DNA of 64,000 bases. It comes from Verrucomicrobiales bacterium. Lineage in GTDB: Bacteria > Verrucomicrobiota > Verrucomicrobiia > Verrucomicrobiales > V1-33. The DNA lies in contig JANOAV010000057.1 in the NCBI GenBank assembly GCA_031411295.1, forward strand, positions 4,379 through 68,378. The letters are read 5' to 3'. Position 1 is the first letter of the stretch. Every line of letters starts with the position of its first letter. The notes under the pieces are model-generated. The model was not told the DNA's origin and ran no database searches. It was given only the letters and a program-made list of their open reading frames with translations. The position numbers and the translations under genes were made by a program. Below, piece by piece: positions 1 to 28,147 of this stretch.

Positions 1-2081
1 TGGATGAGATGGTGCATGTGGCCAGTGAAATGGAGCGGCTTGGTTTCAAGACGCCATTGCTCATCGGCGGAGCCACCACCAGCGCGGCTCACACGGCCAT
101 TAAGATCGCGCCAAAATACAGCGGTCCCATTGTCCATGTGCTGGATGCCAGCCGCAGCGTGCCTGTGGCCACGAGTTTGATCAGCCAGGAACACCGTGCG
201 AAATTTGCCGCCGACAACGAAATCCGCCACGAAGAAATGCGCGCCAAGTATGGCCAGAAGCGCACGCAGGCCACGCTCACACTGACGGAAGCACGGGCGA
301 AGGGGTTCAAGTGCGATTGGAGCACCGTGGAAATTGCGGTGCCACGTGGCGGGGGCATTCTGCCCCCTAGCCCTGACACGCAGGGCATCACGCCAAGCAG
401 CGAGGTCAGCGCGGAGGGCTCTGCACATTCCTTGGCTGGGGGGCAGAATGCCCCCGCCACGGTTACATTCCTGCACCCAGAGAAGATGATCAGTCAGCTT
501 ACGGGCGGAAATTTACCGCACTGGCGACAGGACGAGGCAACGTATGCCGTGACATATCGCTTGGCGGACGCGCTGCCCAAACAGGTGCTAGAGATTTATG
601 CCGAGAAGAAAGCTCATTTACAGGAATTACTGGATCAAGAGCTAGCCGCCACGGAACCCGCCCAGCTTCGCGTGCAGCAGTTGACCAGCGATCTAGCGGA
701 CCTGTATTCGCAGACCATTGAGAAGGAGTTGGACGCGGGGCATGGCGCTTGTTATTTGCGACAGCCTGAGATTGCGGAACTGGTGCAGAATGCGATGAAG
801 CATTTCGACGGAGAGCGTTACAATCTGCTGGCTTGGTGCATTATGCCGAATCATGTGCATGTTATTGTCAGGCCGATAGGAACGCACACATTGAGCGGTA
901 TTTTGCACTCATGGAATTCGTTTACAGCGCGTGCCGCAAACAAGTTGCTGGGGAGAACAGGGGGATTTTGGCAAGGTGAAGCGTATGATCACATCATCCG
1001 CAATGAAACGGACTACAGCAACCAAGTCCGCTACATTTTAGGGAATCCGAGCAAGGCTAATCTTAAAGAATGGCTCTGGTGTGGCGGGGGCATTCTGCAC
1101 CCTAGCCCCGACACGCCGCGAGACAATCCATGCGTTGAGGGCTCAGCGCGTTCCCAGGCTGGGGGGCAGAATGCCCCCGCCACGGTTGCGACCTTGCGGC
1201 CGTTTATTGACTGGTCGCCATTCTTCCATTCATGGGAGCTGCGGGGACGTTGGAATGCGGCGGAACAGAAATTTTCCTCGGCTCATGAAGATCCTGAAAT
1301 GCGCGTGCAGGCGGACGAGCAAGCGGCCAAACTTTACGCTGATGCGAATGCGCTGCTGGATCGGATCATTAAGGAAAACCGCTTCACACCGAAGGGTGTT
1401 TATGGTTTCTTCCCGGCTAATGCCGTGGGCGATGACATTGAGGTTTACACCGACGAAACCCGCTCCGCCGTGCAGTGCAAATTCCACACGCTCCGGCAAA
1501 CGCAGATCAAGACCGGCAACAATCCTAACCCGAACTACGCGCTGTCCGATTTCATTGCGCCCAAGGATTCCGGTCGCGCAGATTACCTCGGCGGATTCAC
1601 CGTCACGATTCACGGGGGCGATGAATTTGCCAAAGAGTTCGATGCCGCCAACGATCCTTACTCCAGCATCATCGTCAAAGCCCTGGCCGACCGCCTTGCC
1701 GAAGCCTATGCAGAATACCTGCACCAGCAGGCACGGTTCTCCTGCGGCATCGAAAAGCCGGGCGATCTTTCCAACGAAGAGTTGATCCGCGAGAAATATC
1801 GCGGCATCCGCCCTGCGCCCGGCTATCCAGCCCAGCCGGATCACACCGAAAAGAAAACGCTCTTCACCCTGCTCAACAGCACGGAACTCACCGGCTGCGA
1901 ACTCACCGAGAGTTTCGCCATGCATCCGGGCGCAAGCGTTAGCGGCTTGTATTTCAACCATCCGCAGGCCCGCTATTTCGGCATCATGCACATCACGCAG
2001 GAGCAATTGGAAGAATATGCCGCCCGCAAGGAAATGCCGCTGAAGGAAATGGAACGCTGGTTGGGGCCATGGTTAGGCTGA
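1..2081 (+). CDS. metH: Cobalamin-dependent methionine synthase MetH, 5'-truncated by the window edge (end of B12-binding domain plus AdoMet reactivation domain), carrying an in-frame REPIN-RAYT insertion in the interdomain linker
   Basis: ORF 9..2081 is open to the window start. The N-part 'VASEMERLGFKTPLLIGGATTS.AHTAIKI..YSGPIVHV' matches my recollection of E. coli MetH C-terminal third. So do the C-part motifs 'IDWSPFFHSWEL', 'GFFPANAVGDDIEVY', 'IIVKALADRLAEAYAEYLH', 'GIRPAPGYPAQPDHTEK' and 'ESFAMHPGASVSGLYF'. The residues encoded by ~346-1187 do not match. Confidence 0.85.
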   Translation, partial: DEMVHVASEMERLGFKTPLLIGGATTSAAHTAIKIAPKYSGPIVHVLDASRSVPVATSLISQEHRAKFAADNEIRHEEMRAKYGQKRTQATLTLTEARAKGFKCDWSTVEIAVPRGGGILPPSPDTQGITPSSEVSAEGSAHSLAGGQNAPATVTFLHPEKMISQLTGGNLPHWRQDEATYAVTYRLADALPKQVLEIYAEKKAHLQELLDQELAATEPAQLRVQQLTSDLADLYSQTIEKELDAGHGACYLRQPEIAELVQNAMKHFDGERYNLLAWCIMPNHVHVIVRPIGTHTLSGILHSWNSFTARAANKLLGRTGGFWQGEAYDHIIRNETDYSNQVRYILGNPSKANLKEWLWCGGGILHPSPDTPRDNPCVEGSARSQAGGQNAPATVATLRPFIDWSPFFHSWELRGRWNAAEQKFSSAHEDPEMRVQADEQAAKLYADANALLDRIIKENRFTPKGVYGFFPANAVGDDIEVYTDETRSAVQCKFHTLRQTQIKTGNNPNPNYALSDFIAPKDSGRADYLGGFTVTIHGGDEFAKEFDAANDPYSSIIVKALADRLAEAYAEYLHQQARFSCGIEKPGDLSNEELIREKYRGIRPAPGYPAQPDHTEKKTLFTLLNSTELTGCELTESFAMHPGASVSGLYFNHPQARYFGIMHITQEQLEEYAARKEMPLKEMERWLGPWLG
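346..460. repeat. REP doublet (REPIN) 1
   Basis: GTGGCGGGGGCATTCTGCCCCC (346-367) and its perfect reverse complement GGGGGCAGAATGCCCCCGCCAC (439-460) are separated by 71 nt. Each arm contains its own GGGGGCA/TGCCCCC hairpin. Confidence 0.9.
486..1079 (+). CDS. REP-associated tyrosine transposase (RAYT, IS200/IS605 Y1 HUH family) coding segment. It has no stop codon of its own and is read through in the metH frame.
   Basis: ATG at 486. Motifs: 'GNLPHWRQDEATYAVTYRLADALP', HUH motif 'MPNHVHVIVRP', and 'GGFWQGEAYDHIIRNETDYSNQVRYILGNP' (catalytic Tyr region). The C-terminal boundary is approximate. Confidence 0.75.
1081..1183. repeat. REP doublet (REPIN) 2
   Basis: GTGGCGGGGGCATTCTGCACCC (1081-1102, one mismatch to copy 1) pairs with GGGGGCAGAATGCCCCCGCCAC (1162-1183), spacer 59 nt. 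Confidence 0.9.
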
Positions 2082-3353
2082 GTTTTCCGCCGGTTCATCC
2101 GGCACCGGGAAACATCCCCGACTCATCAATAGGACCATCAGCAGCGGCGCATACAGGCCGAGGGAAACCAGCATGGCCAACCGGGACGGCTCAGCGCTTG
2201 CGTTGGCCCAAGGGAGACCCCAGGCCTGCAAAACTTGCGACCAAGCAACCTGCCAGAACGTCCACGCGGTATTCAGCGCCACGATGGAGAACAGCGCAGC
2301 TGCCAGCCACCAGCCCCATTTCGCGCGGCGGATGACGGCCCGTTGCGCTAACCAGAAGCCTCCGATCAGGAGCGCCAGCACTCCCCAGCCACCCGCTCCA
2401 GAGATCAACTGGCCAGCCAGCGGCAATGCCGGAGCCAGGAAAAATTGCGCCGCTAGAATCACGATGGCCCACCAGCAACCGATCCAGAGCATGAGGAGCG
2501 GCTCGGGGATATCATCTGTCCAGCGTGCAGTCGCATCGGCCCTGCGGCACAGATGAGGCAAGTAAGCTCGCTGATAAATGGCAATGATGACGAGTGGAAG
2601 GGCAATGCCGAAGATTCCCACCAGCAGCAGGAGCCGACCAATGCTCAGCGCCACACTGTGCTCGATGTTACCGGAGGTCGGAGTTAGGAGGAACACCCCA
2701 GCGGTAATGACCGCCAGCCCGATTAACACCGCCAGCGCCACAAACCAACCACCTGCGTGAATCAATGGCACCGACCACCGCCGCCGCCGCAGCGAGCCCA
2801 GCCCAGCCATGGCCAACGCCATGGCCGGCACGCCCGTCAACCAAGTCTGGACCAGCGCTTGGCGGATCCACGGACCGCGGTCCGACCCCGTTTCCTGACA
2901 CGCTTTGACCCAGACGGGTGGAATCGTGCAGGCCAGCAGCATGGCTAGGAAAATCAGCACCATTCCGCCAATCACCAATCCCACGCCACGCTCTTCCCAG
3001 CCCGTGTCATCCCATGTTTCCTCCACCAATTCGTGGGCCATACTCTCTTCAGCCTGGATCAAGCCAGTGGGAAGTGCTTCCTCATGCCCTTCGGCCAAGG
3101 CGCTCACGGCCCAAGGCGCGATGATTTCTTCATCCAGCTCCGCGGGCGCAGGCTCGGAGGGCTCATCCATGGCTTCCGGCTCAGGCGCGGCATGCAACTG
3201 CGCTGCCAAGGCGTTGAGATGGGGGAAAGCGGGATGTTCCGTGAAGGCCATGGCGGTCCGTGGCTCTGGCGGAGAGATTGTTGCGACCTGTTGCAACAAT
3301 TCTTGTAAATTCGGGAAATCGGGTGATGTGTCAGGGGAGGACGCGGCGGCCAT
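2073..3353 (-). CDS. Polytopic membrane protein of unknown function (acidic N-terminal region followed by many hydrophobic helices)
   Basis: 426-aa ORF. Repeated ~20-aa hydrophobic stretches (e.g. 'VLIFLAMLLACTIPPVWV', 'WFVALAVLIGLAVITAGVFLL', 'LLLLVGIFGIALPLVIIAIY'). No recognisable catalytic motif. Confidence 0.65.
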   Translation of the reverse strand: MAAASSPDTSPDFPNLQELLQQVATISPPEPRTAMAFTEHPAFPHLNALAAQLHAAPEPEAMDEPSEPAPAELDEEIIAPWAVSALAEGHEEALPTGLIQAEESMAHELVEETWDDTGWEERGVGLVIGGMVLIFLAMLLACTIPPVWVKACQETGSDRGPWIRQALVQTWLTGVPAMALAMAGLGSLRRRRWSVPLIHAGGWFVALAVLIGLAVITAGVFLLTPTSGNIEHSVALSIGRLLLLVGIFGIALPLVIIAIYQRAYLPHLCRRADATARWTDDIPEPLLMLWIGCWWAIVILAAQFFLAPALPLAGQLISGAGGWGVLALLIGGFWLAQRAVIRRAKWGWWLAAALFSIVALNTAWTFWQVAWSQVLQAWGLPWANASAEPSRLAMLVSLGLYAPLLMVLLMSRGCFPVPDEPAENSA

Positions 3354-5323: not shown

Positions 5324-6436
5324 ATGAAAAGTGCCCTCCCCCTAATTACCGCCAGCTTCCTCAGCTGGAGTTATGTCCTGGCTGAGCCCCCTGCGGCCAG
5401 TCCCCCGGTGGTGTTGGCCGCCAGTCAGGGCGTAGGCGAGCAAGCCCGGCGGGACGGTTGGCAGAGTGCCTGTCTGGCGGTGGATCTGATTCATGTGAAA
5501 GAGGGATTTCCCGGACTCAAAGCTTGGTTGGAAGACTTCAAACAAGCAGATGCTGCCGTGACCGCGGCAGGAGCCAAAGCGGCTTTGCCTGATCTTAAAA
5601 TCGATCAACTGGTGACGGGTAATCACAATTTCTGGGCCGCTTATTACGAAATTGTGCCAGGCGACCCCGCCCTGTCCCTGCTGCATTCCGGCCTGCTGCT
5701 AGCAGGGGGAGAAGCCCAGCGTGCGAGTGCCATTGCGACCATTGGCTTGCAGCGCCCATCCATTCCTAACTCGTTCCGCAAAGGCTTGCAGCGCGTCATT
5801 GATCGGGCTTACGCCGCGCAGGAGGCCGCTATCGAGTTAACCAAAGTTGGGGTGCAATTGCATGATGAGAAAAAATTTCCGGAAGCGTTAACAAAATATG
5901 ACGCAGCGCTCAAACTCTGGGCCAACTGCGGGTGGACCCACTATGAAAGGGGGTTCACGCTGCGCACCATGGCCACCAAAACGGCTGGCGATCAGCCTGG
6001 ATCTGCGGGAAGCGAACCACCGGAAGTCGTCCGTGCCTTCGCACGGGCGCGACAGCATGATCCATTGCAGATTCCCGCATATCAAAGCCCCGACCCAGTG
6101 ATCTTGAAATCGCTGCCGCCCTTGACCCAGAAAGTGAAGCCCGCCTGGGTTAAGTTGGAAGCGGACCCCGCGCACACCCTCTCCGATCCAGATCTTAAAT
6201 CCCTGGCCGAAGGCTTCCAGCGGGCCGGCATCCACGATTACGCCCTCGCTGCCCACAGCGTCATGGTGGCACGGGCGGGCCGATATTTGCCCAGTGATGT
6301 CATCTGGATTAGTGATAGCTTGGCGGAAATCGCGCCCGGTCCTGCCACGGAGAAAGCGTTGCAAATGCTGGAAGGGAAGGAACTCCATCTCCTGACTCTG
6401 GTCCCCATCGTTCCACCTCCTGCCGAGGAGAAATAA
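5324..6436 (+). CDS. Hypothetical secreted protein with a TPR-like helix pair
   Basis: ATG at 5324 with signal-like 'MKSALPLITASFLSWSYVLA'. 'FPEALTKYDAALKLWANCGWTHYERGF' resembles a TPR. Confidence 0.55.
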   Translation: MKSALPLITASFLSWSYVLAEPPAASPPVVLAASQGVGEQARRDGWQSACLAVDLIHVKEGFPGLKAWLEDFKQADAAVTAAGAKAALPDLKIDQLVTGNHNFWAAYYEIVPGDPALSLLHSGLLLAGGEAQRASAIATIGLQRPSIPNSFRKGLQRVIDRAYAAQEAAIELTKVGVQLHDEKKFPEALTKYDAALKLWANCGWTHYERGFTLRTMATKTAGDQPGSAGSEPPEVVRAFARARQHDPLQIPAYQSPDPVILKSLPPLTQKVKPAWVKLEADPAHTLSDPDLKSLAEGFQRAGIHDYALAAHSVMVARAGRYLPSDVIWISDSLAEIAPGPATEKALQMLEGKELHLLTLVPIVPPPAEEK

Positions 6437-6443
6437 GCACAGT

Positions 6444-7577
6444 ATGGCGCGCTCACTTCTCGCAGCGGTTGCTCTGAGTTTGCTGGCAATCGCCACCTTG
6501 GCCACCTCGGCCAGCGCGGCCCAGCGCGTGCTCTTCCTGGGTGACTCCTTAAGCATGGGGGCCTTCGGGACCACGCTGGACAAACGGTTGCGCGAGGCCG
6601 ACCTGGAAGTTTACACCTCCGTCACTGGTGGCGCCACCCCCGTCTATTGGTTGGAGGAATTCCCGCCCATGCCGACCGATATTGGGCATTGGAAGAAAAC
6701 GCCCAAGGAGGATCAACGCGTCAAAGTGCTGGACGCGACGCCCAAAGTGGAGGCGCTCATCGCTGCCTACAAGCCGGATGCCGTCATCGTGCAGACAGGC
6801 ACCAATCTATACTCGGCGCTACGTTCATCCAGGACCACCCCGGAACAGGCGCAGACCAAAGTGCTCAGCCTGATGCAGAAAATGGCTGCCGCCATCACCT
6901 CCCGTGGCTGCACCCTTTACTGGATTACCCCAGCCAGCGCGCATCCCGAAAAATTCCCGGCCCCGCTGCAACGACTCATGTTGGATCTAACCAAGCGGGC
7001 GGTGGGGACCTCCGGCCGCGTTTTCGACAGCTTTGCGGTCACCACCTACCAAGATCCCTATCCCGCCCCGGGCAATGACGGCATCCACTATGGCCCCACG
7101 GAAGCCGCCGCGTGGGCGGAAATCGTGGCTCCAGATGCCATTTCCTTTCTCAAAACAGGCCCGTCCCCGCGCATCCCCAAAGCCACCGTGCCACCGATCG
7201 CTCCGCGCGCCCGCATTGTGGAGGATGACCCCACCGAAGCGGATTCCAGCGCCCTGACTGCGGAAATTCGTCTGGTGCGCAAATCTGATTTCACCACGCC
7301 CTCAGAGATTACCTACAACAACGCCCTCGCCATCTACGAATGGGAAATCCTTCGCGTCATCGAAGGCACCCATTCCTCCAAGCGGATCCTCGTGGCGCAC
7401 CAAGTGGTTAAAGGTCGGAAAATAACCCCTGAGCGGGATCTCAAGTTGGGCAAAACCTACATCGTCCAACTCGTGCCCCTCAGCGACTATCCCAGCGTCG
7501 AAAGCTGGCAGACGATCGACAAAATCAGCCAGGACCTCTCCCGGCAAGGCACCATCTATATCCCGAAAATGGATTGA
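6444..7577 (+). CDS. SGNH/GDSL-family hydrolase with an extra C-terminal domain
   Basis: Signal peptide, block I 'RVLFLGDSLSMGAFG', and block V-like 'GNDGIHYG'. About 120 extra C-terminal residues of unknown fold. Confidence 0.7.
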   Translation: MARSLLAAVALSLLAIATLATSASAAQRVLFLGDSLSMGAFGTTLDKRLREADLEVYTSVTGGATPVYWLEEFPPMPTDIGHWKKTPKEDQRVKVLDATPKVEALIAAYKPDAVIVQTGTNLYSALRSSRTTPEQAQTKVLSLMQKMAAAITSRGCTLYWITPASAHPEKFPAPLQRLMLDLTKRAVGTSGRVFDSFAVTTYQDPYPAPGNDGIHYGPTEAAAWAEIVAPDAISFLKTGPSPRIPKATVPPIAPRARIVEDDPTEADSSALTAEIRLVRKSDFTTPSEITYNNALAIYEWEILRVIEGTHSSKRILVAHQVVKGRKITPERDLKLGKTYIVQLVPLSDYPSVESWQTIDKISQDLSRQGTIYIPKMD

Positions 7578-24043: not shown

Positions 24044-27000
24044 CTAAGGCAGGCTGACTTCGACGCGATAGAAGCGTCTTGTGTCAGTGGAGTTCACATT
24101 CCAGGTGAAATTCTGCGCTGAGGTCACCGAGGTATAACTGCCGATCGGTTGCCAGCCTCCGAGCGCAGTGCTGGTCATCAGGCGGTAGCGTCGGTTCGTA
24201 ATCAGTGGGAAGGTGATGCCGAGACCGGGATTGGCTGGAGCAATCGTCATCGACGGGACGCTGTCCTGCGTGATCGGGCTGAGGCCGAAGAGAAATTCCT
24301 GGAGGTTGGTCACGCCATCGAAATCCGGATCGCCTGCCGAACCTTGATCGCCATCCGGATTGTTGCGATCCAAGCCGTGAGCGCTTTCCCAATAATCTGG
24401 GAGGCCATCATTATCCGAATCAGTTACCGCAGCCACGGCGGCTTTTACCAGCCTAGTGTCATTCAGCGTCACGGAACCCCGCTTGTGCTCCACGCGGACG
24501 TAATGCAGAAAGTTAGAATCGCCATTGTAGAGATTGGGGAAGGTAAATGTCAGGGCGCTCTCAGTGCCGGTCTCATTGCGGATGAAACCATAAGTGGCGC
24601 GCGGTTGGAAGATTTCCCCCTCCGGATCGCCACTGACTTGGCTGGCCAGATAGATGCTGAACTCGGGGATCAACAGCGCCTCGGCAATATCCACCCCAGG
24701 CGAGGATTGACCGAGCGTTTTGTTGAAGTAAACCTTCATTTGATAGGTGCTGGAAACGATATCGCCATCGTTGGTGGGAAATTGAATGCGAAAATTGGCC
24801 GGACTCCCTGTGGTGACTGTTCGCGTTAGGGTGGTGAACCAGCCTGCGGAGTCCGTTAGGTTGTTATCCGTTGAACTGGAGAGTTCCTTGAAACGAACCT
24901 TCACGCTGGCGGTGCCACTGGCGGGAATGTTGGTGTAAGTGAAGCGCCATTCCCTGGTGAAACTGGTGCCGCCGATTTGTTGTGGCGGATTCACCTCCGT
25001 GGCCTTGGCCCAGGTGGTGGTGCCGTTGGAATCCAGAATTTGATACCAGACTTCGTTCGTCTGATCGTCGCTGAGCACCACGAAACCGTAGCTGCTGCCA
25101 CCCAGCGTGTCCCCATTGTTGGCGGGAAATTTAATCAAGCCCTGGGGAGCTTGTTGATCCAGGTAAAACGTCTGCGTGTTCGTCTTGTAAAGCGAGGCCT
25201 TGCCGCTGCGGGAAAGGAACGAGCGCGTGCGGACGACGTGCATGCCATCCTTGAGACCGGTGGCTTGCGTGCCCTTGTCACTATGCGGATAGTAGGTCAC
25301 GGTGTTGGCATTGAAGCCCGTGATTTTATAAATCGTTTCCATCCGTTCCTTCTTCCGCACTTCATCCATGCTGGAGGGATAACGGGTGGCGGCGGTGTTC
25401 TTGTAACCGCCGATTTTATACCGCAGCTTGGTGCCTGCTGGGAGTGCGGGAATGGTGCCGCGCCACCATTCTGGGGTGCCCCCTGCTTCGGCCGTGCCAT
25501 TTTGCACCTTGGTGAAATCGACAATTTGCGTGGAGCCACGGCCCTTGTTGCCACTGCCTTCAGGATAGGACGTGCCATCGGTGGTATAGTAAATTTTCAC
25601 ACTGCCCAAGGCGTCCGCCGTGTATCCCACTTTAACCACAAATGTAATCGGCTGGCCGGCTGCGCTGGCGGGCTGTGGCTGCATTTGCAGGGTGGTGTCG
25701 ATGCCATGGCCGACTGCTGGATTATGGAAGAGCCACTGGGCGGTGTCGGTATTGGTATCCGTGCCATTTACATCCGCCTGATTCAGCGTGATGCCGCTGG
25801 AACCGATGGTGGCCTCCCAGGTCTCCGCTCCCGGGCTGCCAATGATGACGCGCGTAATGTCCTGCGCGGCAAATTTCTCCGTCATGCGTCGTTCGAACTG
25901 CATCTGCTCGTAGCCGACGAACAACTCCATGCCCTTGGGGTCGGCCGGTAGCGTGTCTGGGGGATTGTCGCGCTTGGTGCCGGTTAGGGGGCCGATGCTG
26001 AGTTGGGAATTCACATCCACTCCGCCGTCCAATTTGATCAGCATGTTCGCCACCGAACCATCACCCCGTGCCAGGATGGAGAGATTCGTCGCGGAAGTCA
26101 CCCGAGGGATTTGCGCATTGTAAGCATAGGCTGGATCACCATTTTTCCCATCCACCCGACGTTGCGTCATCATCTCACAGTCCAGCCCATTCTGCTGAAT
26201 CGTAATGGGGCGCACCGTGGTCGAGCCTTCGAAGGCCAAGGTGGCTTCCGGCACCGGCAGGCTGAACGCGAAGTAACCATTGCTGGGCGTGATCACTTGA
26301 TTGGCAGTGAAATTTCCCGCCGCATCAAGTTCCTTAATTTTACCATCATTGCCAACGTAGGCATAGAAACTTCCGCCATGCGGGCTGTAGTTGCGGAGGA
26401 TGGTGTTCGTCGGCAGGCTCGTGGTGAAGCCGCCGGGCTGACCCTGACCTGAAGTATAATTTCGCGCCATTAGGACTAGCAAGGTGGTGCCATCCGCATC
26501 GTTCATGGTGCTGCCTTCGGATTTATCGCGGAACTCCCACGCTGCGAAATTCTGACTACTCCAGCGACCGAATTGCCCTCCGCGCACGAAGTCGCGACGG
26601 ACCCGCAGGGCTCCTGTGATATAGTTTTGACCATACTGACCCAGGAACGGCACGTAGGACGGCTTGGGGAAATAGTCCGGCCCGCCGGAGATGTTATAGC
26701 CATCGGTGTAAATGATTGGCAACCCCGCGCGCATCAGCATGTATTGATGCGCGGCGGGACGTTCGCTGCCTGCCATGTAGTTGTTATCGTGGCTCAGGGT
26801 ATACATCATGCCGTTATTGACGCCCTTCGTGAAGGAGCCGGGGTTATCATAGCCGCTCAAGCTCCCGCCAATGCCATTGCCCACGCCGTTAGCGAAATCA
26901 TCATTGGCCAGACGCATCCCGGCATTGATGTAATCATCCGGATTCGGTGGGGCTCCCAAGTGCTCGCCAAACATCACCAAATCATTCCTTGCCAAGGTTT

Positions 27001-28147
27001 GATCGAAGTTGGTATCCCGATGATTATCCCAATCCGTGAAACCGCGCGTCACATTAAATTGCTCCTGGGCCTGGCCAAGGAAACCCGCGTTGGACCGATC
27101 CTTGTTGACCCCGCTCATGAGGCCGAAGAAATAGTTCGGCACATGCTTCACGGCATCCAAGCGGAAGCCATCGCAATTCGTCTGATCCACCTGCCAGCGA
27201 ATGGAGCGGATAACCATGGTGTTCACGTCTTCGGCCACGATGTTGCCCATGTCATATTTGCCATTTCCAAATCCCCAAGCCGCAGTTTGGCGCGCGGGAT
27301 TTGTGGGATCCACACCCGTGTCTGTGAAGGGTTCGCTCGGCTCCCCGACATCGTGCTGGCCATTGCCGTTCGTGTCCTGCCAGTCGAATTTTCCGTTCCC
27401 AGCCCCAGTATTTCCAGCCCCATAGCCGCTGTCCACATACGGTTCCTTGTTGGAAAAGGGATGCACTGGCTGGCCATCCGCATTGGTCGCCACCGTGAGA
27501 TCAGTATCCAAGTAAAGCCACGGTTTCCCCGCATGACGAATGCCGATCCATTTGGGATAATCCAAATTCTCCGTCTGCCCCACCGGATCGAAGCTGGTGT
27601 TCCAATCTTCATAAGCAATGTCCCATGCGAAAGGATTGCGATTCAGCACCTGCCATTCGTCATTGTAATCGACCGAATCCGACGCCTTGCGCCAACCGCC
27701 ACCGGCTTTGCGCACGAGGTGGAAATCCTCTGGCACAAATCCCGGAATCCCCGGAAACAACGTTCCCGCTGGCACATTATCCAACGGCCCGGCATTGTGC
27801 GCCATCACGTTGTCGAAATAAATTTTCAGCCCGAAGCGATGCGCCTTTTCCACCAAGGAGAGCAACTCCGCCTTCGTCCCATAGCGCGTCCGCACGGTGC
27901 CAGACTGATCTTTATCGCCCAAGTCAAACCGATCAAAAACATCATACCCCACCGAATACGTGCCCGATCCACCCTTGGTCGGCGGCGGCAGCCACAGCGA
28001 GGAATATCCCGCCTCCGCAATCTCCGGCAACCGATACTCAATCTCCTTCCACGAAGTATTGAAATATTGCAGCACTGTCTCCTCCGCCACCAGCGAGGCG
28101 AACGGGGACAGGAACACGAGGGAAAAGATCAAAGACAGACGCTTCAT
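24044..28147 (-). CDS. Giant secreted GH13 alpha-amylase-family glycoside hydrolase with long C-terminal beta-rich region and DxDxDG tail
   Basis: Signal peptide. GH13 regions: 'YFDNVMAHN' (I), 'GFRLDAVKHV' (II), 'MFGEHLG' (III), 'YTLSHDN' (IV). Confidence 0.9.
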   Translation of the reverse strand: MKRLSLIFSLVFLSPFASLVAEETVLQYFNTSWKEIEYRLPEIAEAGYSSLWLPPPTKGGSGTYSVGYDVFDRFDLGDKDQSGTVRTRYGTKAELLSLVEKAHRFGLKIYFDNVMAHNAGPLDNVPAGTLFPGIPGFVPEDFHLVRKAGGGWRKASDSVDYNDEWQVLNRNPFAWDIAYEDWNTSFDPVGQTENLDYPKWIGIRHAGKPWLYLDTDLTVATNADGQPVHPFSNKEPYVDSGYGAGNTGAGNGKFDWQDTNGNGQHDVGEPSEPFTDTGVDPTNPARQTAAWGFGNGKYDMGNIVAEDVNTMVIRSIRWQVDQTNCDGFRLDAVKHVPNYFFGLMSGVNKDRSNAGFLGQAQEQFNVTRGFTDWDNHRDTNFDQTLARNDLVMFGEHLGAPPNPDDYINAGMRLANDDFANGVGNGIGGSLSGYDNPGSFTKGVNNGMMYTLSHDNNYMAGSERPAAHQYMLMRAGLPIIYTDGYNISGGPDYFPKPSYVPFLGQYGQNYITGALRVRRDFVRGGQFGRWSSQNFAAWEFRDKSEGSTMNDADGTTLLVLMARNYTSGQGQPGGFTTSLPTNTILRNYSPHGGSFYAYVGNDGKIKELDAAGNFTANQVITPSNGYFAFSLPVPEATLAFEGSTTVRPITIQQNGLDCEMMTQRRVDGKNGDPAYAYNAQIPRVTSATNLSILARGDGSVANMLIKLDGGVDVNSQLSIGPLTGTKRDNPPDTLPADPKGMELFVGYEQMQFERRMTEKFAAQDITRVIIGSPGAETWEATIGSSGITLNQADVNGTDTNTDTAQWLFHNPAVGHGIDTTLQMQPQPASAAGQPITFVVKVGYTADALGSVKIYYTTDGTSYPEGSGNKGRGSTQIVDFTKVQNGTAEAGGTPEWWRGTIPALPAGTKLRYKIGGYKNTAATRYPSSMDEVRKKERMETIYKITGFNANTVTYYPHSDKGTQATGLKDGMHVVRTRSFLSRSGKASLYKTNTQTFYLDQQAPQGLIKFPANNGDTLGGSSYGFVVLSDDQTNEVWYQILDSNGTTTWAKATEVNPPQQIGGTSFTREWRFTYTNIPASGTASVKVRFKELSSSTDNNLTDSAGWFTTLTRTVTTGSPANFRIQFPTNDGDIVSSTYQMKVYFNKTLGQSSPGVDIAEALLIPEFSIYLASQVSGDPEGEIFQPRATYGFIRNETGTESALTFTFPNLYNGDSNFLHYVRVEHKRGSVTLNDTRLVKAAVAAVTDSDNDGLPDYWESAHGLDRNNPDGDQGSAGDPDFDGVTNLQEFLFGLSPITQDSVPSMTIAPANPGLGITFPLITNRRYRLMTSTALGGWQPIGSYTSVTSAQNFTWNVNSTDTRRFYRVEVSLP

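Follow-up and report, generated by a model that had tools for sequence, protein, structure and literature searches.

A REP-flanked tyrosine transposase gene nested in frame within the methionine synthase gene of a Verrucomicrobiales bacterium

The locus described here raises the question of why a gene for methionine synthase (metH) should hold, within its own reading frame, what looks like a complete transposase gene set between palindromic repeats. The DNA analysed, hereafter the window, is a stretch of 64,000 nucleotides (nt) from a Verrucomicrobiales bacterium (assembly GCA_031411295.1, contig JANOAV010000057.1, positions 4,379 to 68,378 of the forward strand), and the unit in question, at window positions 345-1187, consists of a gene for a REP-associated tyrosine transposase (RAYT) with an inverted doublet of repetitive extragenic palindromic (REP) sequences, or REPIN, on each side. 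An arrangement of this kind, a rayT gene flanked by REPs, was reportedly described by Nunvar in 2010 and goes by the name REPtron. The window case is one member of a much wider class and not a one-off, and the unit is probably best understood as a passenger that the MetH protein tolerates in one of its interdomain linkers.

The 3' part of metH and the nested element form one continuous open reading frame (ORF) of 690 codons at 9..2081 of the plus strand, stop codon included, with the gene start cut by the edge of the window. The ORF list and the finding of the Pfam domains Met_synt_B12 and Y1_Tnp in one protein both bear out an earlier, sequence-only reading of this DNA, which had the unit on the same strand and in the same frame as metH, stop-free, in a single 690-residue polypeptide. 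Alignment with full-length MetH homologues assigns 9..344 to the last part of the cobalamin-binding domain and the first part of the linker (...KCDWSTVEIAVP); window residues 1-60 match the final stretch of the B12-binding domain in these homologues, and the N-terminal MetH modules lie outside the window. The domain order of the closest relative, locus L001, in which the B12-binding domain occupies residues 793-886 and the activation domain begins at residue 982, agrees with this placement, and the unit accordingly sits where the sequence-only reading had put it, in the linker between the cobalamin-binding and activation domains. It replaces about 12 linker codons, the window reading PR-[281 aa]-TLRPF versus PR-QLGVMDAPVTLE-TLRSF in P0004, the closest protein. 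From left to right on the plus strand, the unit comprises the left REPIN (345..464, with REPs at 345-372 on the plus and 434-461 on the minus strand, then GGTT), translated as RGGGILPPSP...AGGQNAPATV; the leader TFLHPEK (465..485), which joins that REPIN to the RAYT core; the RAYT domain of 198 amino acids (aa) at 486..1079; and the right REPIN (1080..1187, with REPs at 1080-1107 on the plus strand, with one mismatch, and 1157-1184 on the minus strand, then GGTT), translated as CGGGILHPSP...AGGQNAPATV. Beyond it, metH resumes at 1188..2081 with the activation domain, which binds S-adenosylmethionine (AdoMet) and runs from (VA)TLRPFIDWSPFF to WLGPWLG and the stop codon. This domain is complete, since Met_synt_B12 matches aa 393-675 with 351 bits over profile positions 2-273 of 273, and its RGIRPAPGYP motif is intact. 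No stop codon closes the RAYT, and the metH frame is kept across both junctions. The GC content at third codon positions (GC3) is 0.60 in the RAYT, below the 0.69-0.71 of metH.

Part of this openness is cheap. The REPIN flanks are GC-rich, with two of three forward frames open and no stop codon in 15% of shuffles, and the stop-free codons outside the RAYT, which the sequence-only reading had held against pure chance, were downgraded as a stand-alone argument after this shuffling test. Taken jointly, strand, both junction phases and the stop-free flanks have a chance of about 1%, the missing stop codon of the RAYT not counted; it is the comparison with other genomes, given below, that decides the point.

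The segment at 486-1079 is identified as a RAYT by its sequence, its predicted fold and its REP flanks. The Pfam family Y1_Tnp matches aa 256-322 with 23.5 bits in the full ORF and 26.4 bits when the segment is searched alone (cut-off 23), so that it does score as the Y1 transposase it had been taken for, and the NCBIfam family REP_Tyr_transpos matches with an E-value of 1.7e-20 and 73.4 bits, short of the equivalog cut-off of 80. The sole sequence match in the Protein Data Bank (PDB) is 4ER8, the TnpA_REP of E. coli, with the HUH motif and the catalytic tyrosine aligned. An AlphaFold (AF2) model of the 198-aa domain has a predicted confidence (pLDDT) of 92.6, and its top PDB match by Foldseek is again 4er8_A (E 1.2e-6, TM-score 0.45/0.53), followed at ranks 2-30 by the TnpA structures of IS200, IS608 and ISDra2. 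The HUH motif is encoded by CAT GTG CAT (His-Val-His) at 852..860, aligned to H59-M-H61 of 4ER8, and the catalytic tyrosine by TAC at 1032..1034 within NQVRYILGNP, aligned to Y115. The sequence-only reading had picked out the HUH motif (HVHVIV) correctly; the tyrosine of GEAYDHIIRN, which it had cited alongside, is not the catalytic one. Without exception, 97/97 nested and 119/119 free-standing RAYTs have both histidines of the HUH motif and the catalytic tyrosine, and an LPHW motif conserved at the N-terminus is invariant in 97/97 nested copies whose overall identity is only 45-55%. In the model, residues 32-83 of the RAYT (window 486-1079) form two long helices (H32-54 and H60-83) after the first beta-strands, by comparison with the 165-aa E. 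coli TnpA_REP.

The repeats that flank the RAYT are equally well defined. Four copies of the 22-mer GTGGCGGGGGCATTCTGCCCCC, at 346 (+), 439-460 (-), 1081 (+, one mismatch) and 1162-1183 (-), form two inverted doublets at 345-464 and 1080-1187, much as the sequence-only reading had described; the 22-mer occurs at no other place in the 64 kb, and shuffled sequences lead one to expect 0 matches. Each doublet is an inverted repeat, with arms 345-372/434-461 on the left and 1081-1116/1148-1183 on the right. The right doublet in turn repeats the left one directly, at 78-88% identity, and GGTT follows each of them. Folded as single-stranded DNA, the left doublet reaches -48.8 kcal/mol (z -7.5) and the right one -41.5 kcal/mol (z -6.0). 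A covariance model, R1, made from 23 REPs scores the REPs of the left REPIN at 40.3 and 40.0 bits and those of the right REPIN at 34.4 and 40.0 bits. The design common to the REPs of nested RAYTs is a (C)GTGGC tag, a 7-bp stem, a 3-nt loop and the stem complement, often with NAGCC, and it is present in the window and in loci L035, L115, L013, L015, L020, L021, L024, L025, L037 and L040, as well as around a copy nested in the gene sua5 (L113, see below). The stems vary by lineage in a compensatory manner (GGGGGCA/TGCCCCC, CCGGGCA/TGCCCGG, GGCGGAT/ATCCGCC, GGCGGTT/AACCGCC and GGAGACT/AGTCTCC). Across the 23 REPs, 99.4% of stem cells are paired, a percentage inflated by the inclusion of some REPs that came from a scan for perfect hairpins; double changes occur at 6 of the 7 pairs, and the covariation score is 0.841 versus 0.216 in shuffles (0/500 reach the observed value) and at most 0.125 in slid registers. 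The REPs of P0001/L008 differ in having a GTA[TCG] tag, and that of L030 has the tag GTAG.

A few REP-like sequences lie apart from RAYT flanks. L024 has an additional doublet just past the metH stop codon, at 6505-6532 (+) and 6555-6582 (-), and L113 has an additional intergenic REP at 1615-1642; no other hints of REP dispersal were seen. In the window, model R1 also gives a weak pair at 25385-25416 (+) and 25441-25467 (-), with 12.5 and 13.3 bits and E-values above 1, which we treated as chance. The pair is inverted and lies inside a 1367-aa minus-strand ORF (24044-28147), its first member reading GTGGC-GGCGGTG...AACCGCC; it is probably due to chance and could alternatively be a decayed intragenic REP pair. 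An independent assembly of the same sequence, Logan contig L081 (SRR20217193), terminates within the right REPIN at window position 1158, and since it ends there the repeat or its hairpin appears to break short-read assembly.

That the arrangement is not peculiar to the window became evident when the 690-aa protein was searched against 5.8 billion proteins. Among the best 120 matches, almost all of them MetH proteins of Verrucomicrobiota, 96 hold a full-length in-frame homologue of the window RAYT at 43-54% identity, in line with the tolerated in-frame insertion, and the resulting MetH-RAYT fusion, that the sequence-only reading had put forward. The insertions fall into two classes by site. 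Class A, with 16 proteins besides the window, has the RAYT directly before (S/T)LR..IDWxPFF in the cobalamin-activation linker, whereas in class B, with 79 proteins, it lies some 130 aa beyond that point, within the activation-domain loop ALSDWVKP|...|DYIGGF. In the DNA itself, an unbroken ORF is seen in 11 loci of GTDB species representatives, two of class A (L008 and L035) and nine of class B (L013, L015, L020, L021, L024, L025, L030, L037 and L040), with L025 being from an isolate, Rubritalea marina DSM 17716. About 14 of some 58 loci labelled as Verrucomicrobiota carry a RAYT in metH, and none was found in metH among about 22 loci of other phyla. Because frames are open in so many independent genomes, chance is excluded as the cause of the open frame.

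The same family of RAYTs is also found inside other proteins. When the RAYT was searched against 1.84 billion cluster representatives, 9,945 matches were obtained, 701 of them at E-values of 1e-30 or lower, and of the best 150 matches 41 have at least 100 aa of another protein on both sides, 37 have it on one side and 57 are free-standing. By Pfam, the hosts (the non-MetH ones listed as P0242-P0386) include valyl-tRNA synthetase (ValRS; 2), alanyl-tRNA synthetase (AlaRS), UvrA, IspG (2), isochorismate synthase, an electron transfer flavoprotein, the C-terminus of DnaE, a thiamine pyrophosphate enzyme and MetH, together with DinG-like helicases (2), MurC-Ddl, glycoside hydrolase family 38 mannosidases (3) and, among restriction-modification proteins, type IIG/ISP enzymes (6) and a DNA methylase. 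Three such loci were inspected at the DNA level: L113 has a REP-flanked RAYT in frame in the YrdC|Sua5_C linker of sua5, L116 has one in valS between HFWYMRYPL and VATTRPET with GTAGC-tagged hairpins, and in L114 the RAYT is fused to the C-terminus of AdoMet decarboxylase. Taken together, these cases may reflect a widespread lifestyle of RAYTs and REPs, to which we give somewhat better than even chances: whole REPtrons would reside in frame in essential modular proteins (MetH, ValRS, AlaRS, UvrA, IspG, DnaE, Sua5 and MurC-Ddl) and be expressed only as host-internal domains, with the REPs coding for flexible linkers, an active HUH nuclease permanently tethered to its host, and permissive sites recolonised by different RAYT families.

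The signals around such a nested gene suggest how it would be expressed. No promoter- or terminator-like site was found at the REPINs or ahead of the RAYT in a scan of positions 1-2400, and a methionine lies within 25 aa upstream of LPHW in 6 of 95 nested copies, with the window among the six. Lacking a promoter, a conserved start codon and a stop codon, the RAYT should be transcribed and translated only within MetH. In an AlphaFold model of the 690-aa protein, the long low-confidence stretches (pLDDT <50) are those encoded by the REPINs, aa 120-148 and 361-387; other residues below 50 are confined to a few short stretches, and pLDDT is near 90 in both RAYT and activation domain. The most economical reading of the model is a folded HUH domain held between two disordered tethers rich in Gly, Pro and Ala within one polypeptide, each tether serving as a flexible linker in a region between domains that is flexible to begin with. 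The RAYT would presumably be retained in the mature MetH enzyme, and it may act on the REPs that flank it.

The state of the linker in relatives indicates that the element can be lost. In L001-L005, which come from the five closest species and are 78-81% identical over the C-terminal region, the linkers are ordinary and show no trace of a REP, and the same holds for P0004 (82%), in keeping with the empty site that the sequence-only reading had envisaged in close relatives. That the DAPVT of the P0004 linker might be a REP scar was considered and rejected, since this linker aligns colinearly with those of L001 and L002, which are free of REPs, and draws no match from R1. Intermediate stages are found elsewhere. 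The linker site of L016 holds a solo REPIN (CGQEARATEGAPGSLPGS) and its loop site an internally deleted RAYT (...RLAHW|NQRAYILRNP...), both in frame, with solo or remnant REPs at 5376-5403 and 5791-5818 by model R1; L041 retains only the left REP (5923-5950) and the leader, again in frame; and P0117, at the protein level, combines a solo REPIN peptide at the linker site with a class B RAYT at the loop site. In the window, the two REPINs lie as direct repeats at spacings of 735 and 723 nt, both multiples of 3, and recombination between them would therefore leave a solo REPIN in frame. MetH can therefore do without the RAYT.

The history of the insertions was approached with a neighbour-joining (NJ) phylogeny of 216 RAYT domains, with bootstrap values obtained on a thinned set of 123 taxa. 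In the full tree, 95 nested copies fall together, class B is monophyletic, and P0001 lies outside; the RAYT of P0001/L008, which sits in the same linker as that of the window, groups with free-standing RAYTs. A single origin of the MetH insertions is not claimed, because the bootstrap value of the nested clade is negligible (3/100). At a minimum, P0001, L030 with its GTAG tag and a second RAYT family described below are independent colonisations. Even where MetH C-termini share 90% identity or more, RAYT identity is only about 64%, and this gap suggests fast divergence of the RAYTs, their replacement, or both. The element of the window was probably acquired within its own lineage, or is at least predicted to be still intact and active; such an acquisition is favoured because the relatives are clean and empty, the four REPs are near-identical and the RAYT GC3 is below that of metH.

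We consider it quite probable that the nested REPtron is a non-splicing, intein-like passenger tolerated at a permissive linker site of metH. As we picture it, a REPtron, a single RAYT gene between its cognate REP hairpins, would have lodged in frame in the metH linker, and MetH would thereby have gained an HUH/Y1 nuclease domain that folds on its own and is held on either side by a disordered peptide, each the product of a GC-rich REPIN. Selection on metH would hold the frame open, and selection at the level of the element would preserve both the catalytic core of the RAYT and the hairpins of the REPs, with their GTGGC tag, 7-bp stem and 3-nt loop, for as long as the element is active; with a lapse of that selection, in-frame deletions would first leave solo REPs and in the end an empty site. 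Selection keeps the frame open, by way of metH, and maintains the catalytic core of the RAYT. Nothing points to a benefit for MetH, since the site is empty in some relatives and holds decayed, in-frame remnants in others. Several observations weigh against this interpretation. The match to REP_Tyr_transpos falls below its equivalog cut-off, the pairing percentage of the REPs is inflated as noted, and the lower GC3 of the RAYT fits a foreign origin and is silent on function. Out of 100 bootstrap replicates, the nested clade is recovered in 3, class B in 55 and the grouping of the window with P0005 and P0007 in 47, and RAYT identity tracks MetH identity with a Spearman coefficient of just 0.41 overall and 0.38 in class B (0.73 in class A). 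A population of dispersed REPs or REPINs did not come to light, the window holding just the four flanking REPs by both the 22-mer search and model R1, and a metagenome scan with the REP core GGCGGGGGCATTCTGCCCC gave 31 loci with one match each, without inverted doublets and with no RAYT or MetH nearby; these 31 matches were not tied to the element, and because no dispersed population was found, activity of the RAYT on other REPs is unsupported in the window. Finally, the fusion protein itself is predicted from sequence.

Other explanations account for parts of these data. Were the REPtron a recent accident, landed in a metH that is heading towards a pseudogene and whose frame happens to be open, the empty sites of the closest relatives, flanks that are stop-free in 15% of shuffles with two of three forward frames open, and a RAYT GC3 below that of its host would all be expected. 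The identical in-frame arrangement in 96 of the 120 MetH homologues, however, contradicts a disruption left open by chance, as the sequence-only reading had put it in its second alternative; the RAYT lacks its own stop codon and joins metH in phase at both ends, the activation domain is complete, with a match of 351 bits, and even the decayed remnants in relatives are in frame, all of which makes the accident very improbable. An artefact of assembly or gene calling, such as a chimeric join at a repeat, is less probable still, and we give it hardly any weight: the repeat is an assembly break point, as the Logan contig that terminates within the right REPIN attests, but the same architecture appears in many independent NCBI, JGI, ENA and Logan assemblies, one of them of an isolate genome, and in the window the frame carries through both junctions and the host sequence on either side aligns colinearly with relatives.

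Two further possibilities take the unit to be real. The RAYT fold could have been recruited for a MetH-related or new function (regulation, oligomerisation or DNA tethering) and kept for the benefit of the host, which would suit its in-frame retention with continuous ORFs across 11 GTDB species, its invariant catalytic residues and the failure to see a dispersed REP population in the window or the metagenome scan. An exapted domain would not be expected to be so patchy (14 of about 58 Verrucomicrobiota species representatives, with the closest relatives empty), nor to leave in-frame decay products and solo REP scars that show it to be dispensable; the cognate REP hairpins are kept and covary, as expected of the substrate of a transposase, and the same RAYT family occupies many unrelated hosts, so that recruitment by MetH seems unlikely. 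We judge it equally unlikely that the element is removed before the enzyme is made, whether by excision from DNA in some cells or at the level of the mRNA or protein, leaving a working MetH without it. Y1 transposases can excise precisely from single-stranded DNA, and the intact REP ends and catalytic residues would permit this here, as would the direct-repeat REPINs at 735/723 nt (multiples of 3), with solo REPINs to be seen in P0117 and L016. Were removal the rule, though, an open frame in all 96 proteins and 11 loci would be unnecessary; there is no Hint domain by Pfam and the junction residues are not conserved, and the window has no Rfam family, intron or other.

Compared with known systems, the unit most resembles the REPtrons (PMC3333891; PMC3479197, PDB 4ER8; PMC5581495), in that it has an HUH/Y1 enzyme with the same motifs and fold, inverted REP hairpins with a conserved 5' tag and stems that covary between lineages, and a single copy in the region. 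It differs from them in not being intergenic and in having no start, stop or promoter of its own, being read as a host-internal domain; in its GTGGC rather than GTAG tag; in an extra helical hairpin of about 50 residues in the model; and in the points already counted against it, the dispersed REP population not seen and the NCBIfam equivalog cut-off missed. In-frame intragenic palindromic repeats are known as the Rickettsia palindromic elements (RPEs) and the REPs of Opitutus terrae, and REPtrons and TIRtrons have likewise been described (PMC3733652). The RPEs and Opitutus REPs are similar in that palindromic repeats lie in frame in housekeeping genes, including one Verrucomicrobium and hosts such as uvrA, and are translated as extra peptides; likewise, both REPINs of the window are read in the metH frame, as predicted disordered linkers. 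Those elements, however, are repeats only, of 20-80 aa, whereas the window unit nests the transposase gene itself, with a folded domain of about 200 aa and two REPIN-encoded linkers. TIRtrons and their TIRYT transposases (PMC3733652; subclass 2.1 in PMC6006769) share with it tyrosine transposases, in Planctomycetes, Acidobacteria and others, and flanking inverted repeats outside large repeat families, but have been described solely as free-standing genes.

Like inteins, nested RAYTs lie in frame in essential conserved proteins and would be translated with them, are patchy, pass through stages of decay and occupy the same sites recurrently. Unlike inteins, they lie in linkers and surface loops rather than in active-site motifs, have neither a Hint domain nor conserved splice-junction residues, and presumably stay in the protein; a Pfam search of the 690-aa protein gives neither a Hint nor an intein match, the residues at the junctions vary from carrier to carrier, and an identity as an intein was rejected for want of a Hint domain. 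A scan of the window against Rfam gave no matches, to introns or anything else. Autonomous IS200/IS605 elements occur in multiple copies with distinct left and right subterminal hairpins and often with tnpB. The window RAYT shares with the TnpA proteins of IS608 and ISDra2 the fold, the HUH/Tyr chemistry and, presumably, the recognition of hairpins at the element ends, yet the element is present in one copy in 64 kb, has identical inverted REPs as its ends and no tnpB, and encodes a longer protein.

MetH in this group of bacteria has other insertions as well. A second, shorter RAYT family (RLPHFERPW...CVMPDHVHML...SFDRLIRSE) lies in frame in the MetH of other Verrucomicrobiae, at the linker between the homocysteine (Hcy) and pterin domains in L049 (3292-3639), at the cobalamin|activation linker in L059 (5191-5538) and at both linkers in L067 (2780-3127 and 5166-5513), where the ORF is broken, probably through long-read indel errors. 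MetH of the Prosthecobacter type has about 360 additional aa, inserted in frame where the B12 cap (B12-binding_2) is followed by the B12 Rossmann domain, with weak similarity to Zeta_toxin, a P-loop kinase family (21.6-38.9 bits), in L006 (1633-6498), L005, L012 and L018 and in proteins P0042, P0044, P0045, P0076 and P0246. In two RAYT carriers, L115 (4308-9459) and the P0117 locus, metH is split: a separate gene for the Hcy domain (S-methyl_trans) precedes a small gene of the PDDEXK_3 nuclease family, behind which comes the remainder of metH (pterin-B12-RAYT-activation), with the PDDEXK_3 gene in the exact position of the Hcy|pterin linker. In the window, metH is met by a convergent 426-aa ORF at 2073-3353 on the minus strand, by the look of its translation a hydrophobic membrane protein, whose stop end overlaps the last 9 nt of metH.

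The RAYT domestication paper (PMC5581495) makes no mention of fusion, within-gene or in-frame RAYTs, of Verrucomicrobia or of Planctomycetes. We found no description of a RAYT nested in methionine synthase, or of one as an intragenic fusion, in the open-access papers searched, and an earlier description elsewhere is possible. The class of ORF-nested RAYTs appears to be undescribed: its parts, namely RAYTs, REPs and in-frame REP insertions, are known, and their arrangement appears to be new.

RAYTs are regarded as single-copy, intergenic, domesticated transposases, and this standard picture changes if many of them can be made only as internal domains of essential enzymes. Nesting ties the dosage of a RAYT to the expression of its host gene and supplies natural constructs for tests of RAYT activity. 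Nested RAYTs also explain some odd database labels, such as MetH carriers annotated as 'dihydropteroate synthase' or 'methylmalonyl-CoA mutase cobalamin-binding domain/chain' and one RAYT annotated as 'menaquinone-specific isochorismate synthase', and they account for long 'fusions' that have been thrown out of RAYT surveys. The insertion sites in MetH and the other enzymes amount to a map of naturally permissive positions that is useful for protein engineering, and the visible series of decay makes the gain and loss of nested elements open to study. More generally, a permissive linker, together with the flexible stop-free linkers that the element brings with it, would constitute a second route, besides that of the inteins, by which a selfish gene may hide in an essential ORF.

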